From an uncultured virus (IMG/VR IMGVR_UViG_3300030012_003600) (lineage: Duplodnaviria; Heunggongvirae; Uroviricota; Caudoviricetes), in the IMG/VR virus record IMGVR_UViG_3300030012_003600: DNA of 64,000 nt; one strand, 5' to 3'. The notes below the pieces were generated by a model. That model ran no database searches. It saw only the letters and a program-made list of their open reading frames with translations, and was not told the origin of the DNA. How positions within the stretch are numbered: position 1 is the stretch's first letter; each line of letters begins with the position of its first letter. The position numbers and the translations under genes are program-made. Positions 35,401 to 49,296 of this stretch are shown here, one piece after another.

Positions 35401-35683
35401 CCAACAAAGTAAGATTGTTGCAAGTTCTCATACATTTGAATATATCGGTTCTGGTAATACAATTACTTTAGCAACACCAAAACGAGGTGGAGTTACGATA
35501 CAAGCAAATGAAGTTGTAAGTCAAAATGGTGGTAGAGTAATTTATACAAGCACAGACCAAGCAGGTAATTTCCGTATTGGTGATGATCTTCAGATTAACC
35601 AAGCAACAGGAACTATCAGTGGAAGAGCATTTTCCAAGAGTTTGTTCTCAGAAATAACACCCTTTATCTTAGCACTCAGTTAA
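32420..35683 (+). CDS. chimeric protein: acidic PEVKYYD-repeat coiled coil fused to fibre/beta-helix-like C-terminus
   Basis: LPSIDDF-type x3, PE[VI][KR]xY[DE] x5, GGGG linker, then VLYVAKDGSDDNNG..GNYVE..VVGDDLR, PYIQNCTS, STDQAGNFRIG. Confidence 0.75.
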   Translation: MSKDLPSIDDFAEDNSNLPSIDDFITEENAEELPSVEDFIEKEEVITEATQTIEDANGESFAEVKDIIPPWPELVKMVNDVRADIPDIPEIKYYDKELEELAEQILQIKDEIPEVPEVRYYEKEVEAICEQIDLVREQIKDLPEVKYYDEQVNAIEDRIDTLQTEVTNLPEVKYYDKEIEAICSAIDQVRSEIPTFPKWVNEVNEVPDFSWIGKTFSVIDDDFIKVNDTIDTLKENIQIDIKKLIEDNEVRHFENKVQFGTEVKDLDTKLGEEKEKIWKELRDSSMKIWEYHKEFKDDDKKLKKQILGEYNNLKQNIKKELKEVSKESVKTDELLLKYFTDLRKEVSEIVIPEVKDYDDDLRFIRADIKDLRKLVRTIKTEQKNLSEGLLNEPPSDKESLGGKSDPLTPMDQKFATLDDLANHYRLFINRIQQQISTIGGGGAGFIKDLDDVDISGLADNFILQYDATNSKWLTVANNAGAGGTWASNSIGISTTKNVGIATTTAKSDVSLFVVGDIEATGNVNVAGTITYEDVKNVDSLGLSTFRSGIEVQTGTATTALLVQGDARVTGILTIGTASVTVDGDNNQITVGIVTISNSEVILGDNVTINASATGINSAPNVLYVAKDGSDDNNGTSIDNAKLTIAGAVSIAQSGTTIKVLSGNYVESNPIELPAFTAVVGDDLRTVKVLPNTPTSDIFHVNKACKVANITFSGHTAPAAAIAFPTAGATNVGGGKWKGPYIQNCTSDTTTGTGIFIDGDKAVKTKSMNVDAFTQYNQGGVGVAVTNEGYAQLVSVFTICCDKAIQVHKGGQADLANSNCSFGTLGLVADGVSPEQFTGIVTASAAASQDNVTINVGAVTTRPYDGQVVYFDQLFKSVETITVGSGGTGYTQAPTVTVDSPSGPNGETASAFATIENGAVTEISIISSGSQYTSTPSITISGPQSGINTATATANMADTYFTINSATPIVSGITTLTLAENLINTVGVGSTAYFFQQSKIVASSHTFEYIGSGNTITLATPKRGGVTIQANEVVSQNGGRVIYTSTDQAGNFRIGDDLQINQATGTISGRAFSKSLFSEITPFILALS

Positions 35684-36016
35684 ATGGCACAATTAGCACT
35701 TAATAGATTTCAAACTGAAACTGCAATTTTGACAACCGATGATCAAACAATTTACACTGCACCAGCAGGATATACTGGTATTATCTTATATGCACATATT
35801 ACTAACTATGGTTCGTCATCGACCACTGTTACTTGCAAACATGTAAGATCTGGAACAGAAACAGAGATAATTAATGAAGCAAGTGTTCCTGTTAATGATG
35901 CATATATTCCTTTAGATGGAAAGTTAGTTTTAGAAACAAACGACTCATTCAAAGCAAGTGCTGGTGCAAACACAACACTTAAAATTCTTCTTTCAGTTCT
36001 GGAGACAGCAAACTAA
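35684..36016 (+). CDS. small putative virion protein, 110 aa
   Basis: IYTAPAGYTGIIL, GKLVLETND, LSVLET pattern typical of small beta-sandwich proteins beside fibre genes. Confidence 0.7.
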   Translation: MAQLALNRFQTETAILTTDDQTIYTAPAGYTGIILYAHITNYGSSSTTVTCKHVRSGTETEIINEASVPVNDAYIPLDGKLVLETNDSFKASAGANTTLKILLSVLETAN

Positions 36017-36189
36017 TGCCTAGACTTTTAAGTTCAGTAAATGGTTCAAGTCAAGTTGGTGTATCAAGTGATGGAACTAACTTAGGAAATATGACTAGAT
36101 TGAACTATGAAAGTAATAGAGTTCAACTAGATACATCAACAGGTGTGGCAACAGTTTTTAGTGATCCACTTACTATAATTGGACTATGA
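36016..36189 (+). CDS. 57-aa hypothetical protein
   Basis: TAATG start overlap and ATGA stop overlap; MPRLLSSVNGSS...STGVATVFSDPLTIIGL. Confidence 0.65.
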   Translation: MPRLLSSVNGSSQVGVSSDGTNLGNMTRLNYESNRVQLDTSTGVATVFSDPLTIIGL

Positions 36190-36311
36190 AAACTTTTAAG
36201 CAATTTCAAGAGTCTTGGAGTAATAAATATAAAAAGAGTATTGACTGCTCAAATCCGAAAGGATTCTCACAAAAAGCACATTGTGCCGGTCGTAAAAAAA
36301 GAGCAAAATGA
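36186..36311 (+). CDS. 41-aa basic peptide with capsid-targeting-like N-terminus
   Basis: MKTFKQFQESWSNKYKKSIDCSNPKGFSQKAHCAGRKKRAK; ATGA overlaps at both ends. Confidence 0.7.
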   Translation: MKTFKQFQESWSNKYKKSIDCSNPKGFSQKAHCAGRKKRAK

Positions 36312-38713
36312 GCAACCCCCGCATTCCAAGAAAACCTGGGCAACCAGCAAATTCCAAGAAACATTCTGACCTTTATACGGATGAAAATCCAAAAGGTACG
36401 ATTCATGGACTTGGATTCAAGGACGTTGCGACTGCTAAAGCATCTGTTTCCAAAATTCGTAATTCTTCTAGATCACATGCTCATAAGATTCAGGCAGCTG
36501 TTGCCATGGAACAGAGAGCAAGAGAAATGGGTAAAACTTCAGAAGCAGCAGTCTACAGAAAGTTTATCAATATTATGAAAAAGAAGACTAAGAAAATGAA
36601 TGAAGAAAAGAATGTTCATGGTGAAATAGAAGTTCCTAATAGCAACGTTAGAAAACTTGCTAAAAAAGCATCTAAAAGAGTTGATAGTGATGTGGATGGT
36701 GATGTAGATAATAATGATCCTAAAGCAGGAAAGTTTGGAGAATATCTCCCTGGTGTAGGTAAAAAAAGAATTACTACCACTATGAAAGAAGAAAAGAATG
36801 GTCGTTGTCCAGCAGGACAATATTATTGTTATACTGATAAAAAGTGTAAACCAATTCCTGCAGGGTTCAAATCTGTTGGACGTGCTGGTATGCTCCGTAA
36901 AGAAAATGGACATTCAGTTGATGAACCAAAAAATGGAAATGGGAATGGGAACGGTAATGGTAATGGAAATGGGAATGGTGGTAACGGCAACGGTAATGGT
37001 GGTGGAAACGGTATGTCCGAAGAAACCAAAAAAGATCATGAATATTCCATGGCACGTTCAGAACTAAAGACAGTTATGAATGCTGCGAAACGTCTTAATA
37101 AAAAGATGGGTAAAAAAGGAGAGGGTGAACTTCCAGCATGGGTTCAGTCAAAAATTACCAAAGCAGCAGATTATATTGATACTGCAGCAGATTATGTAAC
37201 AAATGAAGAAACTGTAAATGAAGAGGGTCTTCGTGATTGGTTTGGTAAATCAAAATCTAAAGGTGGAAAACCTGGTTGGGTGCAAGTTGTTTCAGGTAAA
37301 CCCTGTGCTAGACAACCTGGTCAAAAAACAACACCTAAATGCGTTTCTTCTGCTAAAAGAGCAAGTATGAGTAAATCAGAAAGACTTTCAGCACAAAGAA
37401 GGAAGAGAGCTGCTGATCCAGGTCAACCACAAAAGACAGGAGCAGCAAAACCAACATACGTTTCAACTGATAAACCCAAGAAAACCATGAAAGAAGAAAT
37501 GAAAAAGAACGTAAAAGGTATTGCTAAAGAATTAGATAAAGCAGTTGAAATGCATAAGAGTCAAGCTAAACGATTGAGAAAAGCAGGTATTAGTGAGGGA
37601 TTTGTAACTTTACCACTTACTATTGAAATTCCTAATAATATCAGAGATTTTAACTTGGGTCTCATGTTCCGTGAAAGTCTTGATACAAACAGTGGAATGC
37701 TGTTTATATTTGATGAGTCTGCTCAGCAGTCTTTTCATATGACTGAAACTAGAATTCCTCTTGACATTGCTTTTATTACAGAAGAAGGTGTCATTGAGAG
37801 TATTAAAGAATTAGAACCATTTGAAGAATCTCCAGTAGCATCTGAAGGAGAAGTGCTCTATGCACTGGAAGTTAATCGTGGATGGTTTGCAGAAAATAAC
37901 GTAGAAGTTGGTGATGAGATTCAAATTGAGGAAGGCAAGAAAGATGCTTGCTATCATAAGGTCAAGTCTCGTTATTCTGTTTGGCCAAGTGCATATGCGT
38001 CAGGAGCACTAGTCAAATGCCGTAAAGTCGGTGCAAAAAATTGGGGCAACAAAACCAAGAAAGAAGAGTTTGAACTTGAAGAAAAGAAAGCACAAAAGTG
38101 CTGGCCTGGTTACGAAAAGAAAGGCACTAAAATGATGTTTGGTAAGAGATATAATAATTGTGTAAAGAAGGAAGAAGTAGAATGTTCTCACACTAAAAAG
38201 GGCAAAGAGTGTCCTGTACATGGTGTTGATGCATGTCCCGATGAAGTTAGTGAAGCAGTAAGAATTCCAGCAAAGACTGGCAATCTTGTTGATACTTATT
38301 TTAATTTTAGAGGTAAGTATTTTATGTTGAAGATGTTCTTCCCTCAGGTGTCTGTTCCCAAGAGATCCGATGTTCAAGATCAGATCTCAAAAGTTTATCC
38401 TGGTGCGAAACTACTATCTTACAAAGTTTCGGAGTATGAACCCGGAGAACCAGTCCTTCATGCAGAAGGGGCAGCATGGACAAAGAAGGAAGGAAAAAAC
38501 AAATCAGGTGGACTCAACGAAAAGGGACGTAAGTCTTACGAAAGAGAAAATCCAGGATCTGACCTTAAAGCACCAAGCAAAAAGGTTGGAAACCCCCGTA
38601 GGGCATCATTCTGCGCTAGAATGAAAGGAATGAAGAAAAAACTTACTTCGTCCAAAACTGCTAATGATCCAGATAGCAGAATTAATAAATCTCTTAGAAA
38701 GTGGAATTGTTGA
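36308..38713 (+). CDS. 801-aa modular protein containing a DUF192-like domain and about 10 small basic/Cys modules
   Basis: GLMFRESL..GMLFIF..FHMTETRIPLDIAFI..YALEVNRG (DUF192-like, about 37600-37925); modules joined by x-x-E(E) linkers. Confidence 0.8.
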   Translation: MSNPRIPRKPGQPANSKKHSDLYTDENPKGTIHGLGFKDVATAKASVSKIRNSSRSHAHKIQAAVAMEQRAREMGKTSEAAVYRKFINIMKKKTKKMNEEKNVHGEIEVPNSNVRKLAKKASKRVDSDVDGDVDNNDPKAGKFGEYLPGVGKKRITTTMKEEKNGRCPAGQYYCYTDKKCKPIPAGFKSVGRAGMLRKENGHSVDEPKNGNGNGNGNGNGNGNGGNGNGNGGGNGMSEETKKDHEYSMARSELKTVMNAAKRLNKKMGKKGEGELPAWVQSKITKAADYIDTAADYVTNEETVNEEGLRDWFGKSKSKGGKPGWVQVVSGKPCARQPGQKTTPKCVSSAKRASMSKSERLSAQRRKRAADPGQPQKTGAAKPTYVSTDKPKKTMKEEMKKNVKGIAKELDKAVEMHKSQAKRLRKAGISEGFVTLPLTIEIPNNIRDFNLGLMFRESLDTNSGMLFIFDESAQQSFHMTETRIPLDIAFITEEGVIESIKELEPFEESPVASEGEVLYALEVNRGWFAENNVEVGDEIQIEEGKKDACYHKVKSRYSVWPSAYASGALVKCRKVGAKNWGNKTKKEEFELEEKKAQKCWPGYEKKGTKMMFGKRYNNCVKKEEVECSHTKKGKECPVHGVDACPDEVSEAVRIPAKTGNLVDTYFNFRGKYFMLKMFFPQVSVPKRSDVQDQISKVYPGAKLLSYKVSEYEPGEPVLHAEGAAWTKKEGKNKSGGLNEKGRKSYERENPGSDLKAPSKKVGNPRRASFCARMKGMKKKLTSSKTANDPDSRINKSLRKWNC
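36932..37012 (+). repeat. (Asn-Gly)n low-complexity repeat
   Basis: AAYGGN repeats encoding NGNGNGNGNGNGNGGNGNGNGGGNG. Confidence 0.9.
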
Positions 38714-38720
38714 GTAAATT

Positions 38721-40373
38721 ATGTCTGATAATGTATATCTTGGCAATCCCAATCTAAAAAAAGCAAATACACAGATTGAATTTACAGAAGAAAATATTCG
38801 TGAATTCATGAAGTGTAAAGAAGATCCTGTTTATTTTGCTAATAATTATATTAAGATTGTCTCTCTGGATGAGGGTCTAACTCAGTTTCATCCCTATCAC
38901 TTTCAAGAGAAGTTAATCAACAACTTTCATAATAACAGATTTAATATCTGTAAGATGCCACGACAGACTGGTAAATCTACTACAGTTGTATCTTACCTTT
39001 TGCATTATGCTGTTTTCAATGACAGTGTTAATATTGGTATTCTGGCAAACAAGGCAGCAACGGCAAGAGAACTTCTTGGAAGGTTGCAAACTGCTTATGA
39101 AAACTTGCCCAAATGGATGCAGCAGGGTATTATTGCATGGAACAAAGGATCTCTGGAGTTAGAAAATGGCAGTAAAATTTTGGCAGCATCTACGTCTGCA
39201 AGTGCTGTCCGAGGTATGTCGTTTAACATCCTCTTTCTCGACGAGTTCGCGTTTGTCCCAAATCACGTTGCTGACTCGTTCTTTGCCTCTGTTTATCCTA
39301 CTATTACTTCTGGTAAAAACACCAAGGTAATTATCGTATCTACTCCACACGGTATGAATCATTTCTACCGTATGTGGCATGATGCCGAAAAAAATAAAAA
39401 TGAATATATTCCTACTGATGTTCACTGGTCTGAAGTTCCAGGAAGAGATGATAAATGGAAAGAAACCACAATAGCAAACACCTCAGAGCAACAGTTTAAG
39501 GTTGAGTTTGAGTGTGAGTTCTTAGGATCAGTTGATACACTGATTGCACCAAGTAAATTAAGAACTCTAATCTATGACAGTCCTATTCAAAGAAACGCTG
39601 GATTAGATGTTTATGAACCATCTAAGGAAAATCATGACTATGTAATGACAGTTGACGTTGCAAGAGGTGTTGGGGAAGATTATTCAGCATTTGTTCTAGT
39701 TGATATTACAGAGTTTCCTCATCGAGTCGTTGCAAAATATAGAAACAATGATATTAAACCGATGCTATTTCCAAACATAATTTATGAAGTAGCAAAGAGT
39801 TATAATAGTGCATTTATTTTGTGTGAGGTAAATGATATTGGAGATCAGGTTGCTAGCATCCTTCAATATGATCTTGAATATCAGAATCTGTTGATGTGTT
39901 CTATGAGAGGTAGAGCAGGACAGATTGTTGGTCAAGGATTCTCTGGCAAAAAAACACAACTTGGTGTCAAGATGTCAAAGACTGTCAAGAAAGTTGGGTC
40001 ACTCAATCTAAAGACATTAATTGAGGAAGACAAACTAATTTTTAATGACTATGAGATTATCTCCGAACTGACAACCTTTATTTCAAAGCATAACTCGTTT
40101 GAGGCAGAGGAAGGTTGTAATGATGACCTGGCAATGTGTCTTGTCATCTATGCTTGGTTGGTCCAGATGGATTACTTTAAAGAGTTGACTGATCAAGATG
40201 TAAGAAAGAGATTATATGAAGAACAGAAGAATCAGATTGAACAAGATATGGCACCATTTGGTTTCATGGACGATGGTTTAGGTGGTGATAGTTTCACTGA
40301 CTCTGAAGGTGATCGTTGGTTTCAAGCAGATGAATATGGAGATCGTTCGTTTATGTGGGAGTATCTATCATAA
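38721..40373 (+). CDS. gp17: terminase large subunit gp17
   Basis: YLGNPNLK, Walker A PRQTGKST, LDEFAF, VSTPHG, nuclease VDVARG and NDDLAM. Confidence 0.97.
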   Translation: MSDNVYLGNPNLKKANTQIEFTEENIREFMKCKEDPVYFANNYIKIVSLDEGLTQFHPYHFQEKLINNFHNNRFNICKMPRQTGKSTTVVSYLLHYAVFNDSVNIGILANKAATARELLGRLQTAYENLPKWMQQGIIAWNKGSLELENGSKILAASTSASAVRGMSFNILFLDEFAFVPNHVADSFFASVYPTITSGKNTKVIIVSTPHGMNHFYRMWHDAEKNKNEYIPTDVHWSEVPGRDDKWKETTIANTSEQQFKVEFECEFLGSVDTLIAPSKLRTLIYDSPIQRNAGLDVYEPSKENHDYVMTVDVARGVGEDYSAFVLVDITEFPHRVVAKYRNNDIKPMLFPNIIYEVAKSYNSAFILCEVNDIGDQVASILQYDLEYQNLLMCSMRGRAGQIVGQGFSGKKTQLGVKMSKTVKKVGSLNLKTLIEEDKLIFNDYEIISELTTFISKHNSFEAEEGCNDDLAMCLVIYAWLVQMDYFKELTDQDVRKRLYEEQKNQIEQDMAPFGFMDDGLGGDSFTDSEGDRWFQADEYGDRSFMWEYLS

Positions 40374-40630: not shown

Positions 40631-40638
40631 AATAAATA
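40631..40638 (+). promoter_or_regulatory. late promoter
   Basis: AATAAATA upstream of gp18. Confidence 0.65.
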
Positions 40639-45460: not shown

Positions 45461-46018
45461 ATGGCTGTCCATCAAGGTATAGGTACTGTTACTACCTTAA
45501 CAACTAGTGGAACCTCTGCTAGAAGTGGTGCTATTGCACATAAAAGTGATTCTCTAAGATTTGTTGCTGTCTCACAAGGACATCATGTTGCAATTGGTAC
45601 TTTACCTACTGGAAGCACCACTGATTATTATATTCCAAGTGGGGGAGAAGCAATTCTTTCAATCGGAAGACCAGCATCTCAAAGAGTAGTAAATGTTATT
45701 GTTGGAACTGCAACAACGATTGATTTTCCAGAAGGAACTGGATCACCATTTGCTGTTGGTGATGCAGTCACCCTTACAGTAACTGGTCAATCAGATTTTG
45801 ATTTTGAGCACAAAATTGTATCATCTGTTGATACTAGTGCTGGAGTTAGTGGATATTTCAGTACAAGAATTACTGTAGATCATAATTCATCATCAGTTAG
45901 TGAAGCATTTAATCCAGCATATGCAGAATTAAGAGGTTCGTTAATGGTTGCTGCGAGAACTGATTCTGGATCAGGAAAACTTTATGTCCAACAAGTTCAA
46001 GTTACAGGAGCAGCATAA
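45461..46018 (+). CDS. putative virion structural protein, 185 aa
   Basis: Late promoter, G/T/S/V-rich beta composition, coupled to gp21. Confidence 0.7.
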   Translation: MAVHQGIGTVTTLTTSGTSARSGAIAHKSDSLRFVAVSQGHHVAIGTLPTGSTTDYYIPSGGEAILSIGRPASQRVVNVIVGTATTIDFPEGTGSPFAVGDAVTLTVTGQSDFDFEHKIVSSVDTSAGVSGYFSTRITVDHNSSSVSEAFNPAYAELRGSLMVAARTDSGSGKLYVQQVQVTGAA

Positions 46019-46668
46019 TGAAACTTATTAGAGAAGAAATCGAATCAGTAGAATTTCTTGTCGAACAAAAGAACGGCAAGAAATCAATGTATATCGAAGG
46101 AGTTTTTCTTCAGGGAAACATCAAAAACCGTAATGGTCGTATGTATCCTATGGAAACTCTTCGTAAGGAAGTTTCTCGATATAACGAAAATCATGTTCAG
46201 TCAGGTAGAGCACTTGGTGAACTCGGTCATCCAGATGGTCCAACCGTCAATCTTGATCGTGTCTCACATAAGATTGTTTCTCTGAAAGAATCTGGTTCTA
46301 ATTTTGTTGGCAAAGCAAAGATCTTAAGTACCCCAATGGGTAAGATTGCATCTTCTTTGATTGAAGAGGGAGTTAAACTTGGAGTTTCTTCTAGAGGTAT
46401 TGGTTCACTAAAAATGACTCGTGAAGGTGTTAATATTGTTGGTGATGATTTTATGTTGGCAACTGCTGCTGATATCGTTGCTGATCCCTCTGCTCCCGAT
46501 GCATTTGTTGAAGGAATTATGGAAGGAAAAGAATGGGTATGGGATGGAGGAATCCTTCGTGAAAAGTATGCAGCAAAAACATACAAAGAAATCAATACTC
46601 TTGTAACTCAAAAACAACTTGACGAGAAAAAGTTAGATCTCTTTAACAATTTTCTCAACAATCTTTGA
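46018..46668 (+). CDS. gp21: prohead protease gp21
   Basis: MKLIRE, NRNGRMYP, ALGELGHP, GVSSRGIGS, DIVADPSAPDAFV. Confidence 0.97.
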   Translation: MKLIREEIESVEFLVEQKNGKKSMYIEGVFLQGNIKNRNGRMYPMETLRKEVSRYNENHVQSGRALGELGHPDGPTVNLDRVSHKIVSLKESGSNFVGKAKILSTPMGKIASSLIEEGVKLGVSSRGIGSLKMTREGVNIVGDDFMLATAADIVADPSAPDAFVEGIMEGKEWVWDGGILREKYAAKTYKEINTLVTQKQLDEKKLDLFNNFLNNL

Positions 46669-46735: not shown

Positions 46736-47833
46736 ATGTCTAGTGACAAAAATTTACAGGAAATGGAAGCAGGCACTAAGCAATCCAGAACTGCTGTAAA
46801 TGCTGGAGCAAAAGCTGCTGATCCTATGCCTACAATGGCAGATCCTGGCACTCAGTTAGCAGGTGTAGAAGATCTTGGTGGTCCTACCCCCGAGAACTAT
46901 AAGCCCGACGACGATTCTGCGAAACTTAAGACCCCTGGTGGTACTCTTAAGCAAGTTAAGGATGTAGTAAACAAAGGAGCAAAAGCAGCAGACCCAATGA
47001 AAGGCATGAAGGAAGAAGAAGAACTTTCTACTGAAGAAACCATTGAAGAGGAAGAAGTTACTACTGATGAAGTAGTTGCTGAAACAGAAGAAACTGTTGA
47101 GTATGACGTTGAAGAAGACGTTAATGCTCTCCTCGGTGGTGAAGAACTTTCCGAAGAATTTAAAGAAAAAGCAAAAACCATCTTTGAAGCAGCAATTAAT
47201 GCTAAAGTTGCCGAAATCAAAGAAGGTCTAGAAGCACAGTATCAAGAAAAACTGTCTGAAGAAATCGAAGCAGCAAAAGAATCACTCGCAGAACGTGTTG
47301 ATTCTTATCTTGAGTATGTTGCTGACGAGTGGTTTGAAGAGAATGCACTCGCAGTTGAAGCTGGTCTTAAGACTGAAATGACCGAATCATTCCTCGAAGG
47401 AATGAAGGGTCTTTTTGAAGAACATTATGTATCAATCCCTGAAGAAAAATATGATGTGCTTGAGAGCATGGTAGAAAAACTTGATGATATGGAGACAAAA
47501 CTCAACGAGCAGATCGAAAGAAATATCTCCCTCAACAAGAGACTCGCAGAGTCGGTTGCTGATGGAATCTTAGATCAAGTATCCGAAGGTCTTGCACAGA
47601 CACAGAAGGAGAAACTCGCTTCACTTTCCGAAAGTGTAGAGTTTGAAAGTGAGACAGAATATCGTGAAAAGCTGGAGACACTTAAGGAGTCATATTTCTC
47701 CTCTAAACCACAGTCTTCCACTGCTAAATCTGAAACCCTCTCTGAGGGAGTAGATCATTCTGGAACTGAGTCTTACTCTGATTCCATGACTGCTTATCTC
47801 AGAACCCTGGGTTCTTTTGGCAAGCAAAACTGA
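46736..47833 (+). CDS. gp22: prohead core scaffold gp22
   Basis: LSEEFKEKAKTIFEAA, VDSYLEYVADEW, Glu-rich coiled coil; between gp21 and gp23. Confidence 0.95.
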   Translation: MSSDKNLQEMEAGTKQSRTAVNAGAKAADPMPTMADPGTQLAGVEDLGGPTPENYKPDDDSAKLKTPGGTLKQVKDVVNKGAKAADPMKGMKEEEELSTEETIEEEEVTTDEVVAETEETVEYDVEEDVNALLGGEELSEEFKEKAKTIFEAAINAKVAEIKEGLEAQYQEKLSEEIEAAKESLAERVDSYLEYVADEWFEENALAVEAGLKTEMTESFLEGMKGLFEEHYVSIPEEKYDVLESMVEKLDDMETKLNEQIERNISLNKRLAESVADGILDQVSEGLAQTQKEKLASLSESVEFESETEYREKLETLKESYFSSKPQSSTAKSETLSEGVDHSGTESYSDSMTAYLRTLGSFGKQN

Positions 47834-47877: not shown

Positions 47878-49296
47878 ATGTTCCAATCCGAACAGTTGCA
47901 GGAAAAGTGGGCACCCCTTCTTAATGCTGAAGGATGCGAAGAAATCAAAGATTCTCATCGTAGAGCCGTAACCGCTGTCCTGCTCGAAAACCAAGAAAAA
48001 TTCCTTCGTGAGCAATCTGCCTTCAACGAAGGTGGAATGCTTACTGAGCAACCCACAAACCAAGTAGGTAACGGTGGATTCACCGGTTCTTCTGCTGCTG
48101 CAGGTCCTACCGCAGGTTTCGATCCCGTTCTGATCTCCTTGATCAGACGTTCTATGCCTAACTTGGTCGCATATGACCTCGCAGGTGTTCAACCAATGTC
48201 TGGTCCTACCGGACTAATCTTTGCAATGCGTTCCCGCTACACTAATCAGAGTGGCACTGAGACCTTCTTCAACGAAGTAGACTCTGCATTCTCTGGTCAG
48301 GACAAGGGATCCGACCTCACCAATGGTTTCGCAGACGCAGACGCAGGTATTGGTACTAATTCTCAGGCAGGAACCAATCCTTCTGTTCTGAACCCCGTTG
48401 GCTCTGCAACTTCCACCGCATACAACGTTGGTGGTGGTATGCGTACAGACGACGCAGAATCTCTTGATGGCACCGGTAATGATGCCTTCAACCAGATGGC
48501 ATTCTCGATTGAGAAAGTCACTGTTACTGCGAAATCCAGAGCACTGAAGGCAGAGTACTCCTTAGAACTGGCACAAGACCTGAAGGCAATTCACGGTCTG
48601 AATGCCGAAGCAGAACTTGCTAACATTCTCTCAACTGAAATCCTTGCGGAAATCAACAGAGAAGTCATCAGAACAATCTACAAGGTTGCTGAGCAAGGTG
48701 CTGTTTCTAACACCGCAACTGCTGGTGAGTTCGATCTCGACATCGACTCTAACGGACGTTGGAGTGTTGAGAAGTTCAAGGGTCTTCTGTTCCAAATCGA
48801 GAGAGATGCGAACGCAATCGCACAAAGAACTCGTAGAGGGAAGGGCAACATCATCATGTGCTCTGCAGACGTTGCTTCTGCATTGACCATGGCTGGTGTG
48901 CTCGACTACACCCCTGCACTCAACGCAAACCTGACCGTTGATGACACCGGTAACACCTTCGCTGGTGTTCTGCAAGGTAAGTATCGTGTATACATCGATC
49001 CTTATTCTGCAAACCTGTCTGCTGCTAATGCTGCTACCAACTCTGGTAATCAGTATTATGTTGTCGGTTACAAAGGTTCTTCACCTTACGACGCAGGTCT
49101 GTTCTATTGCCCATATGTTCCCCTCCAGATGGTTCGTGCCGTTGGAGAGAACTCCTTCCAGCCCAAGATTGGATTCAAGACTCGTTATGGTCTTGTTTCC
49201 AACCCATTTGCAGAAGGAGTTACTCAGGGTCTCGGAAGACTCCGTGTCAACAGCAACCGTTACTACAGAAGAGTTGCTGTCAAGAACCTCATGTGA
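47878..49296 (+). CDS. gp23: major capsid protein gp23
   Basis: GVQPMSGPTGLIFAMR, KSRALKAEYS.ELAQDLKAIHGL, FQPKIGFKTRYG. Confidence 0.99.
   Translation: MFQSEQLQEKWAPLLNAEGCEEIKDSHRRAVTAVLLENQEKFLREQSAFNEGGMLTEQPTNQVGNGGFTGSSAAAGPTAGFDPVLISLIRRSMPNLVAYDLAGVQPMSGPTGLIFAMRSRYTNQSGTETFFNEVDSAFSGQDKGSDLTNGFADADAGIGTNSQAGTNPSVLNPVGSATSTAYNVGGGMRTDDAESLDGTGNDAFNQMAFSIEKVTVTAKSRALKAEYSLELAQDLKAIHGLNAEAELANILSTEILAEINREVIRTIYKVAEQGAVSNTATAGEFDLDIDSNGRWSVEKFKGLLFQIERDANAIAQRTRRGKGNIIMCSADVASALTMAGVLDYTPALNANLTVDDTGNTFAGVLQGKYRVYIDPYSANLSAANAATNSGNQYYVVGYKGSSPYDAGLFYCPYVPLQMVRAVGENSFQPKIGFKTRYGLVSNPFAEGVTQGLGRLRVNSNRYYRRVAVKNLM

Follow-up and report, generated by a model that had tools for sequence, protein, structure and literature searches.

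A single open reading frame of 801 codons, found in 64,000 nucleotides of DNA from an uncultured tailed virus, an oceanic T4-like cyanophage (IMG/VR IMGVR_UViG_3300030012_003600; Caudoviricetes; the whole stretch is called here the window), probably encodes a precursor of virion cargo that is destined for the head and predicted to be processed by the prohead protease gp21. We hold this reading with moderate confidence because the modules that make up the protein are shuffled among its relatives with breakpoints at a junction motif, because short relatives carry a leader like that of phage T4 together with L-x-E-A/G junctions, and because phages that are not T4-like encode the modules as separate genes without leader or glutamate. 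According to this proposal, the 801-residue protein and an overlapping ORF of 41 residues (ORF Z) would form the precursor, a chain of small, mostly basic mini-domains with Cys pairs, one DUF192 and a DUF6321 at the end, in which each module would bring a hydrophobic-x-Glu signal on its N-terminal side. The precursor would be made late and taken into the particle, most likely into the prohead core, and gp21 would cut after the junction Glu residues, producing about ten peptides, 3-17 kDa in size, which would stay with the packaged DNA.

Module composition and shuffling

An earlier sequence-only reading had described the ORF as a string of small modules with acidic linkers. The ORF is real, all 11 linkers lie in frame on the tetrapeptides that had been named for them, and the modular build was confirmed, with DUF6321 added to the list of modules. 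The protein, a chain of 12-13 modules with 12 junctions, belongs to the T4-GC119 family, as indicated by 75.5% identity over 96% coverage with SSM2_109 of S-SM2 (T4-LIKE GC 119), whose gene occupies the same place, before gp17. In the list below, "kept" refers to hydrophobic-x-E at the end of the module in aligned relatives.

36308..38713, + strand: 801-aa ORF, T4-GC119 member, predicted pI 9.6, 88.8 kDa
36308..36604, + strand: module A, residues 1-99, basic, ending in M-N-E, kept in 6/6
36605..36790, + strand: module B, residues 100-161, ending in M-K-E, kept in 5/7
36791..37021, + strand: module C (residues 162-206) and the (NG)n stretch (207-238), ending in M-S-E
37022..37222, + strand: module D, residues 239-305, ending in V-N-E, kept in 8/8
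37223..37495, + strand: module E (GLRDWF...PC...PKC), residues 306-396, pI 10.6, ending in M-K-E
37496..37597, + strand: module F, residues 397-430, small and basic, ending in I-S-E, kept in 5/6
37598..37933, + strand: module G, DUF192, residues 431-542, acidic, pI 4.1, ending in I-E-E, kept in 66/67
37934..38083, + strand: module H (DACYHKVKSRYSVWPSAYASGALVKCRK), residues 543-592, ending in L-E-E, kept in 7/7
38084..38254, + strand: modules I (residues 593-622) and J (623-649), J ending in V-S-E
38255..38467, + strand: module K (VRIPAKTG...VYPG), residues 650-720, ending in L-H-A-E, where P4 is hydrophobic
38468..38710, + strand: module L, DUF6321, residues 721-801, pI 10.5

The DUF192-like domain proposed from the sequence was verified by Pfam (PF02643, residues 438-540, 94.7 bits against a cut-off of 27), which also recognized DUF6321 (PF19846, residues 729-799, 78.8 bits against a cut-off of 28.5, and 85.7 bits with the module alone) and placed no further module of the ORF above its cut-off. 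PDB searches returned DUF192 structures only (3pjy and 3m7a, function not known), and the ESM Atlas returned only DUF6321 clusters, none of them with a structure. Nine of the 13 pieces have a pI of at least 9, and Lys and Arg are abundant in the modules. Cysteines are prominent in module C (C..G.YYC..KCKPIP, three Cys), in module I (CWPGY..NCV) and in module J (C.H....CPVHG..CP).

The family is broad, with matches in 7986 of 8000 scored database candidates and the DUF6321 module present in 547 phage records, and its members are still annotated as hypothetical. S-CREM2 gp165 (84 aa, one peptide in the S-CREM2 virion proteome) was considered as a DUF6321 protein and turned out to be unrelated. 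Module order varies widely, with about 100 distinct orders among about 200 relatives, such as A-D-C in S-SM2 and, in two further loci, C-A-E-J-D-H-I-K-L (L041) and E-I-B-...-L (L059); DUF6321 alone is present in nearly all relatives, almost always at the C-terminus. When BLASTP homology end-points were counted against about 200 relatives, 52 of 105 distinct end-points lay within 6 residues of a junction Glu (19.7% expected). Because homology end-points gather in this way, the junctions are true module borders.

Variants were also seen among metagenome contigs, one of which differs by 12 nt in the length of the NG run, while another has 13 residues in place of module G. Taken as a set, the nine metagenome joints lend weak support, since six of them do not have both ends at junctions. 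Three contigs of an RNA run match the ORF exactly, and DNA carry-over is possible there.

The junction motif and stand-alone modules

The acidic linker had been thought to occur at almost every junction, which held for the nine of 12 junctions at which a conserved hydrophobic-x-Glu was found. At P3, the strict T4 residues L/I occur at three junctions, Met at four and Val at three, the remaining two being without hydrophobic-x-E, so that the motif, with Val and Met allowed, is present at 10 of 12 junctions in this protein and conserved at nine. The sites KKEE, HAEG and C|NG did not fit the rule. At the I|J junction (VKKEE), hydrophobic-x-E was present in 0/66 relatives; at K|L (HAEG), it was present in 0/55, yet the Glu was kept in 55/55; and C|NG reads V-D-D in most relatives, the inner V-D-E found here being retained in 11/50. 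The linker Glu was otherwise conserved, with values in colinear relatives of 66/67 for G|H, 64/66 for J|K ([IV]-x-E-A) and 8/8 for D|E.

The pattern [LIVM]-x-E-[EGA], which was picked after the data had been seen, occurs nine times in the 801-aa protein compared with 2.8 +/- 1.6 expected from 2000 shuffles of the same protein (p 0.0005). A similar excess was found in gp22 of the window (10 versus 4.4 expected), and the same shuffle test gave none for terL, gp18, gp19, gp20, gp23 or a 1087-aa fibre-like protein. Among 76 non-redundant sequences, breakpoints were enriched 2.35-fold near [LIVM]-x-E-[EGAS], the controls hydrophobic-x-K and any Glu giving 0.95 and 1.31, respectively. Within the 10 residues preceding a module, where the background is 15%, hydrophobic-x-E was found in 10/11 cases for module C, 82/101 for E (distinct contexts), 15/16 for G, 19/32 for H, 57/61 for I, 13/13 for K and 40/66 for L. 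In the contexts preceding module E, I, L, V and M share P3 evenly, P2 is unconstrained and Glu occupies P1 in 90 of 113, a pattern that looks like a recognition site and not like a scar.

Modules of the protein also exist on their own, a feature expected of the units of a polyprotein: DUF6321 and the GLYANIHAKRKR module do so in podoviruses, and Z, E and I in short proteins. In all six phages checked that are not T4-like (HTVC035P, P-SCSP1k, P-GSP1, KBS-P-1A, HTVC010P and Ma-LMM01, five of them podoviruses of 35-46 kb), DUF6321 makes up a gene by itself, 78-93 aa long, and in two of the six the GLYANIHAKRKR module is an adjoining separate gene. The small genes of the marine podoviruses HTVC035P, P-SCSP1k, KBS-P-1A and P-GSP1 encode homologous modules, with up to 73% identity in DUF6321, and in P-SCSP1k and KBS-P-1A they lie inside the structural gene block. 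They differ from the 801-aa ORF in that each is an ORF of its own, opening simply with Met (M-A or M-P), and both leader and Glu motif are absent from the stand-alone DUF6321 and GLYANIHAKRKR genes of the phages checked. Among 63 complete relatives from viral contigs, none was a bare family member.

These data bear on a different explanation, namely that the protein is an uncut virion mosaic, beads on a string that arose by repeated fusion of small genes and recombination, in which M-x-E-E would be the scars of earlier gene starts (an ATG with A-rich codons after it) and the linkers would be flexible and acidic only. The four junctions with Met at P3 may indeed be fusion scars, since relatives that begin at a module use its junction Met as start codon (MNEE followed by GLRDWF in S-T4; MKNGRC... 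in L006). The independence of the modules in podoviruses, and of the Z module, which is a separate ORF in the window and fused elsewhere, would also suit a mosaic. We nevertheless find this explanation possible but rather doubtful, considering that the non-Met junctions keep hydrophobic-x-Glu equally well (I-E-E and [IV]-x-E-A, see above), that the P3 and P1 pattern before module E is not one of Met alone, that the podoviral stand-alone genes begin without any Glu, and that short forms of the family join such junctions to a T4-type leader.

Leaders, virion proteins and ORF Z

The T4 proteins IPII and IPIII start with MKTYQEFIAE followed by A, and, according to a review, gp21 cuts after L/I-X-E, with residues 4 and 7 of the capsid-targeting sequence (CTS) acting in targeting and residues 8 and 10 in processing. 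According to the same review, processing in T4 is prevented when Asp occupies the cut position of the CTS. Short members of the family (92-189 aa) carry a capsid-targeting leader of the IPII/IPIII type, with every junction L-x-E-A/G. Leaders such as MKNYKEFKELAE-A, one MKTFSQFIAE-E and MKTYSQFIEE-G of P-SSM7_194 share with the T4 leader an aromatic residue at position 4, Phe at position 7 and L/I-x-E at the end. The earlier reading had looked to relatives standing alone behind an MKTFxEF-type leader, and such relatives exist: of the 120 best short relatives from the database, 96 had a T4-CTS-like leader, and a strict leader pattern was present in 15 of 63 complete family proteins from viral contigs versus 16 of 1078 other ORFs at the same loci, all 16 of which look genuine. 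An association of the leader with virion presence in the cyanophage lineage is also supported by S-SM2, where the only canonical leader among 873 ORFs is that of the T4-GC190 cytidylyltransferase, an enzyme family found in virions of S-SM1, S-SCSM1, S-CBWM1 and S-SZBM1.

With respect to the T4-GC119 family itself, 13 peptide counts were reported for S-SM1 virions (Sullivan 2010, Table S8), and the S-SCSM1 homologue gp029 is annotated as "virion protein" in a phage whose paper lists 45 virion proteins by mass spectrometry. The Syn9 homologue is annotated, yet it was undetected in the Syn9 virion proteome, and the family is unmentioned in the accessible portion of the S-SCSM2R paper. These proteomes record the presence of homologues and not fragment sizes, and are compatible with a full-length protein. 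The enzyme presumed to carry out processing, together with other genes discussed here, is encoded downstream of the 801-aa ORF:

38721..40373, + strand: gp17, large terminase subunit, directly downstream of the 801-aa ORF
46018..46668, + strand: gp21 prohead protease (Peptidase_S77, E 1.6e-35), presumed processing enzyme
46736..47833, + strand: gp22 scaffold (T4_CASP), rich in the junction motif, including G-M-K-E-E
47878..49296, + strand: gp23 major capsid protein, with an L-T-E aligned with the L-T-E of T4 gp23

The assignment of gp21 at 46018 was thus borne out, with a T4-type scaffold adjoining it. The L-T-E of gp23 aligns with that just before residue 66 of T4 gp23, the cleavage point in a protein whose propeptide comprises 65 residues (review), and this alignment likely speaks for a protease specificity of the T4 type.

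The 801-aa gene lies among tail-fibre-like genes, apart from the head genes, and could by its position encode a surface, tail or neck accessory protein of the hypervariable gp16-gp17 region, with modules swapped for interaction with host or environment, instead of head cargo. It follows directly the 1087-aa fibre-like protein and two small ORFs common to fibre loci, the gp16-gp17 region has been described as a hot-spot (Sullivan 2010), the neighbouring genes in S-SCSM1 are annotated as tail-fibre genes, and Cys pairs fit an extracellular, oxidising setting. Such a role is nonetheless improbable in view of the head-targeting type of leader on the short members, the location of the modules in cyanopodoviruses, with scaffold or capsid genes on one side and tail-tube genes on the other, and the very basic character of the protein, which with nine of 13 pieces at pI >= 9 resembles DNA-associated internal proteins.

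As for the preferred reading of a gp21-processed cargo precursor, the modules, the Glu junctions, gp21 and the homologues in virions stood up, and two observations that would have spoken against it, a fixed module order and unconserved linker Glu residues, were not made. Weighing against it are the small number of junctions with strict L/I at P3, the Met junctions that serve as starts in relatives, the undetected Syn9 protein and the position of the gene among fibre-like genes. The 801-aa ORF, which starts with MSNPRIPRK, has no CTS-like leader of its own, and no canonical leader (M-K-T-Y/F-x-x-F-I/L-x-E) was found in the whole 64-kb window; for want of that leader, its location in the head is one that we infer. 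Cleavage at its junctions is likewise predicted, and the resulting pieces may serve DNA charge neutralisation or be delivered with the DNA. The nearest approach to a leader is found in the small ORF that overlaps the start of the gene:

36186..36311, + strand: ORF Z, 41 aa, T4-CTS-like leader followed by a basic two-Cys module
36222..36229, + strand: AATAAATA, late-promoter-like motif, inside ORF Z, 79 nt before the ATG of the 801-aa ORF

The leader of ORF Z reads MKTFKQFQE, followed by SWSNKYKKSIDC...; it lacks one residue and carries Phe at P3, so the match to the CTS is approximate. ORF Z overlaps by ATGA both with the upstream ORF and with the 801-aa ORF, from which it differs in frame. 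Elsewhere, Bellamy (L021) and L043 encode the Z module as a small ORF of its own, a 142-aa protein of S-SM2 carries it at the C-terminus, and family proteins of L030 and L045 have it fused in frame as their first module. The late promoter that had been proposed at 36222 was found as a motif, which we take to match the late-promoter consensus, but it lies inside ORF Z, which the sequence-only reading had not seen. ATAAATA was not enriched in the window (18 found versus 25 expected), Rfam gave no match on 35500-39000, and scans for sigma-70 promoters and terminators remained at chance level. A -1 shift at an A7 run (36288-36294), through ribosomal frameshifting or transcriptional slippage, would fuse ORF Z to the 801-aa ORF and provide the long protein with its missing targeting leader, but such a shift is very improbable. 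In its favour, the 801-aa frame is the -1 frame of Z, with its sole stop (TAA) just 5' of the A run, and Z is fused in frame in the two loci named above. Against it, the heptamer is not a canonical X_XXY_YYZ in the Z frame, the A run merely encodes Lys/Arg and is only A5 in S-SM2, overlaps of the ATGA kind usually point to translational coupling, the same frame arrangement recurs with no indel in an independent metagenome contig, and no lambda-type GGGAAAG site is present here.

Relation to known systems and significance

Among known systems, the T4 internal proteins IPII and IPIII (and IPI and Alt) are small basic proteins with a CTS that are processed by gp21, and the present family resembles them in having the same kind of protease gene and members in virions. 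BLASTP of IPII and IPIII against about 200 family sequences gave a best E of 0.021, with no similarity beyond the leader, and this lack of significant similarity counts against the proposed reading. Each of the T4 internal proteins is one product from which one N-terminal propeptide is removed, whereas here up to 13 modules are joined with the cut motif at the joints and the long form, unlike them, has no leader of its own. The T4 core proteins gp22, gp67 and gp68 contain several hydrophobic-x-Glu sites per chain and are cut by gp21 to several fragments, a multi-site cutting described in a review. They are, however, scaffolds of acidic character, and most of their fragments leave the head, whereas the modules of the 801-aa protein are conserved, basic and Cys-containing and occur also as independent genes, and so look like products and not like debris.

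In phiKZ and SPN3US, head ejection and inner-body proteins are cut after the Glu of a three-residue motif by a gp21-related protease, and multiple cuts per precursor were demonstrated by semi-tryptic peptides and in-vitro digestion, as far as the available part of the source goes (PMC10052503). According to the same part, that motif has a small residue at P3 and the cuts free one mature protein of its long propeptides; a shuffling of mini-modules as cassettes is not described there. In the literature searched, we found no description of T4-GC119 as a cleaved cargo precursor.

A bolder extension, which we regard as unlikely although worth stating, is that T4-like cyanophages carry combinatorial cargo: predicted cassettes in any order behind a T4-type loading tag, cut to ten or more peptides and delivered with the DNA. 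Met/Ile/Leu/Val-x-Glu would then have a dual use, as gene start when the module is alone and as gp21 cut site when it is fused. One chain would be packed into the prohead and afterwards cut, and the peptides, stabilised by disulfides or metal, might constitute a host-takeover or anti-defence kit entering the cell with the DNA, the same small virion peptides being encoded by separate genes in marine podoviruses.

T4-like cyanophages rank with the most abundant ocean viruses, and the T4-GC119 family is very common. If the gp21-processed cargo precursor is correct, a head-loading tag and a protease code of the T4 type would be conserved between coliphages and cyanophages, and the presence of non-structural proteins, such as an NMNAT-like enzyme, in purified cyanophage particles would be explained. 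It would also represent a polyprotein-style means of packing numerous small proteins, for which we found no precedent among tailed phages in the literature searched, and would offer a ready tag with which to load foreign proteins into cyanophage heads.

Source, extent and modules of the 801-aa ORF

A T4-like cyanomyovirus is the source of the window. At the DNA level, its gene for the large terminase was 86.5% identical to that of Synechococcus phage S-SM2, the nearest isolate relative, and its genes gp17, gp18, gp19, gp20, gp21, gp22 and gp23 lay in T4 order. Near-identical DNA was present in marine metagenomes (10 runs with 50% or more of the sampled words), and 20 runs from 11 studies held some part of it. 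ATAAATA occurred at 40632, 43512, 45206, 45429 and 46693/46697 (+), about 26-40 nt 5' of the starts of gp18, gp20, a 62-aa ORF, a 185-aa ORF and gp22; 17 of the 18 copies in the window were on the + strand, with a total count below chance expectation.

Two adjacent ORFs are considered here:
36308-38713, +, 801-aa ORF (translation), member of family T4-GC119
36186-36311, +, ORF Z, 41 aa, unannotated-looking; ATGA overlaps with an upstream 57-aa ORF and with the 801-aa ORF

The N-terminal 247 residues of the 801-aa ORF are real coding sequence. The database gene call for the same DNA (P0011) is a 554-aa protein starting at Met248 (window 37049), which omits the first four modules; these modules are conserved in relatives, the long form is annotated in S-SM2, and the consensus of 67 relatives has the N-terminus MSNPRIPRK. 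Independent metagenome contigs matched both the ORF and the junction at its 5' end, free of indels. Only DUF192 (residues 438-540) and DUF6321 (729-799) scored above the Pfam cut-off, whether the protein was scanned whole or module by module. The protein matched 16 PHROGs families (99 to 928 positions long), several of which cover one module only and many of which end in the DUF6321 module.

Mapping of the 13 modules onto relatives revealed about 100 different architectures. DUF6321 (module L) was the last module in nearly all of them, four carrying a tail beyond it.

Module order in the window and in selected relatives
Window: A-B-C-NG-D-E-F-G-H-I-J-K-L
S-SM2: A-D-C-NG-E-G-H-I-J-K-L
Viral-contig locus L041: C-A-E-J-D-H-I-K-L
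Viral-contig locus L059: E-I-B-...-L
Viral-contig locus L061: I-E-...-H-...-D-...-K-...-L

Isolates are likewise shuffled, P-HM1_110 having a K-like, then a C-like module, then DUF6321 (Sullivan 2010, supplementary proteins), and T4-GC119 genes range from 276 to 2985 nt (Sullivan 2010, table).

Protease-site-like motifs at module junctions

The sequence-only reading had proposed that acidic linkers between the modules are sites of the prohead protease gp21. All eleven linker tetrapeptides that it listed were found in frame and in place. The pattern [LIVM]-x-E-[EGA] occurred 9 times in the protein against 2.8 ± 1.6 in shuffled sequences (p 0.0005), a value that is only indicative, as the motif was defined post hoc. 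By the same shuffling gp22 had a similar excess (10 versus 4.4), and six other window proteins had none. The N-terminal 124 residues of gp22 (window 46736-47110) form an extension outside the T4_CASP domain. In it, a GAKAADPM stretch is repeated and an acidic run opens with G-M-K-E-E-E-E, whose tetrapeptide is also that of two junctions of the 801-aa ORF.

For the association of motif and border, only homology was used to place the module borders. When the whole protein was compared by BLASTP with about 200 relatives, 105 distinct interior end-points emerged, and 52 of these lay no more than 6 residues from a junction Glu (expected 19.7%). Among 76 non-redundant members, 1188 of 5250 end-points lay near [LIVM]-x-E-[EGAS] versus 505 expected (2.35 times). 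The controls hydrophobic-x-K, hydrophobic-x-D, any Glu and K/R-x-E gave enrichments of 0.95, 1.26, 1.31 and 1.44, respectively; junctions are thus Glu-rich overall, with the hydrophobic-x-Glu form most enriched. At the DNA level, both ends of three of nine metagenome contig joints fell within 11 nt of junction Glu codons, and six did not fit. One fitting joint had 13 residues (39 nt) in place of DUF192 (window 37591-37940); a second, co-occurring variant had a 12-nt insertion in the (NG)n run (window 36955).

Conservation of hydrophobic-x-Glu at each junction (colinear alignment of relatives)
G/H: 66/67
J/K: 64/66
D/E: 8/8
H/I: 7/7
A/B: 6/6
NG/D: 6/6
E/F: 5/5
F/G: 5/6
B/C: 5/7
C/NG: 11/50; V-D-D in most relatives
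I/J: 0/66; VKKEE
K/L: 0/55; L-H-A-E, Glu itself 55/55

Hydrophobic-x-Glu is thus kept at nine of the 12 junctions. Since I/J and K/L scored 0/66 and 0/55, KKEE and HAEG are not T4-type sites.

We lean towards the 801-aa protein being a precursor of virion cargo that gp21 would cut. It is unlikely, though worth serious consideration, that the protein is an uncut mosaic whose Met junctions are fusion scars; at P3, four junctions have Met, three have Val and three have Ile or Leu. DUF6321 is also encoded by Ma-LMM01 and by podoviruses among the pelagiphages and cyanophages. In all six non-T4-like phages examined it was a bare 78-93-aa gene starting at the domain, and in P-SCSP1k and KBS-P-1A the adjacent gene was the GLYANIHAKRKR module alone. 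In T4-like short forms, by contrast, homologues of both modules follow a leader in one fused protein, joined by L-x-E-A. The stand-alone genes of non-T4-like phages start M-A or M-P without the Glu motif, whereas T4-like phages keep the Glu even on a protein's first module (e.g., MNEE-GLRDWF, MINEE-GLRDWF). T7-like podoviruses are not known to have a prohead protease.

T4-type leaders in the family and on virion proteins

The 16 shortest (92-189 aa) of the 63 complete family proteins found in 80 viral-contig loci had one common build: a leader (for example MKNYKEFKELAE, MRDYKELKELCE or MKSYSDIKNLTE) is followed by Ala or Ser, by 0-2 small modules and finally by DUF6321, and most joints read L-x-E-A/G. 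In the translated T4 record, IPII and IPIII each start with MKTYQEFIAE and continue with Ala; P-SSM7_194 begins MKTYSQFIEE-G and one database protein MKTFSQFIAE-E. According to a review of T4 head assembly, gp21 cleaves after L/I-X-E, IPIII residues 1-10 are enough for head targeting, residues 4 and 7 serve targeting and 8 and 10 processing, and the gp23 propeptide has 65 residues. Positions 4, 7, 8 and 10 are just the ones that the cyanophage leaders keep. Window gp21 is a Peptidase_S77 protein with 42% identity to T4 gp21 over the core, and the L-T-E preceding residue 66 of T4 gp23 aligns with L-T-E in window gp23.

A strict leader pattern matched 15 of the 63 family proteins and 16 of 1078 other ORFs of the same loci; all 16 looked genuine, so chance matches are rare. 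Fourteen of them were a 101-110-aa ORF just 3' of the family gene, and the member scanned (109 aa, L007:4248-4574) matched phrog_1742. This ORF, present in L007 and 13 further loci at the position of S-T4 gp186 and S-SCSM1 gp030, has the leader MK[ST]F.QF[ILM].E with Ser or Ala as the next residue, and this leader closely resembles that of T4 IPII/IPIII. It was absent from the window, and the phrog_1742 search that gave no S-SM2 match matched nowhere at all. Of the 120 best-matching short DUF6321 proteins in a large protein database, 96 had the leader, the query itself bearing one and so favouring such matches; of the other 24, several had the leader behind a different called start and others were fragments of long forms. 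T4-GC119 neighbours P-SSM4 genes 157 and 158 and P-SSM7 gene 193 (T4-GC421, T4-GC422; Sullivan 2010, proteins) start MLSFK..., position 4 being aromatic, and one of them has L-A-E at 8-10. These phages may therefore carry a cluster of head-targeted small basic proteins.

In S-SM2 the canonical leader occurred once among 873 ORFs, on SSM2_161 (MKSFFQFLSE-A), the NMNAT-like cytidylyltransferase T4-GC190 (NC_015279 130761-131987; L102:762-1988). T4-GC190 was detected in S-SM1 virions and its enzyme family repeatedly in cyanophage virions. The leader may explain the enzyme's virion presence, and a tagged enzyme without structural role in particles fits a working targeting system. Of the homologues of the 801-aa protein, that of S-SCSM1 is called a virion protein on its GenBank product name and the paper's text, and that of Syn9 went undetected in Syn9 virions. 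That the 801-aa protein is instead an accessory protein of the gp16-gp17 hot-spot, associated with tail or surface, seems improbable.

The 801-aa ORF lacks the leader, and its canonical form is absent from the whole 64-kb window. ORF Z begins MKTFKQFQE-S, one residue shorter than the consensus and with Phe at P3, followed by a basic two-Cys module. This module has an ORF to itself in Bellamy and L043, forms the C-terminus of a 142-aa S-SM2 protein and comes first in the family proteins of L030 and L045; it belongs to the same system as the 801-aa ORF. A -1 shift at an A7 run fusing the two is rated very improbable, because the site is non-canonical and genes that are translationally coupled usually show this arrangement.

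Predicted processing and its products

The putative cargo precursor would be made late and enter the particle, where gp21 cuts at nine or ten of its junctions would be expected to yield A, B, C+NG, D, E, F, DUF192, H, I+J and K+DUF6321. Among known systems, the T4 internal proteins and the multi-site processing of T4 core and giant-phage head proteins come closest; the T4 homologue of gp22 is cut many times by the T4 protease. In the full texts searched, all from outside the subscription journals, nothing linked cyanophage proteins, T4-GC119 or DUF6321 to gp21 processing or to a capsid targeting sequence, and a full-text search for DUF6321 returned zero papers.

Nine of the 13 pieces have a pI of at least 9, and most have two or three Cys. 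The charge of the pieces, together with the near-universal and highly conserved DUF6321, points to a putative DNA-associated function; that the other modules vary in presence and absence would also suit delivered accessory proteins.
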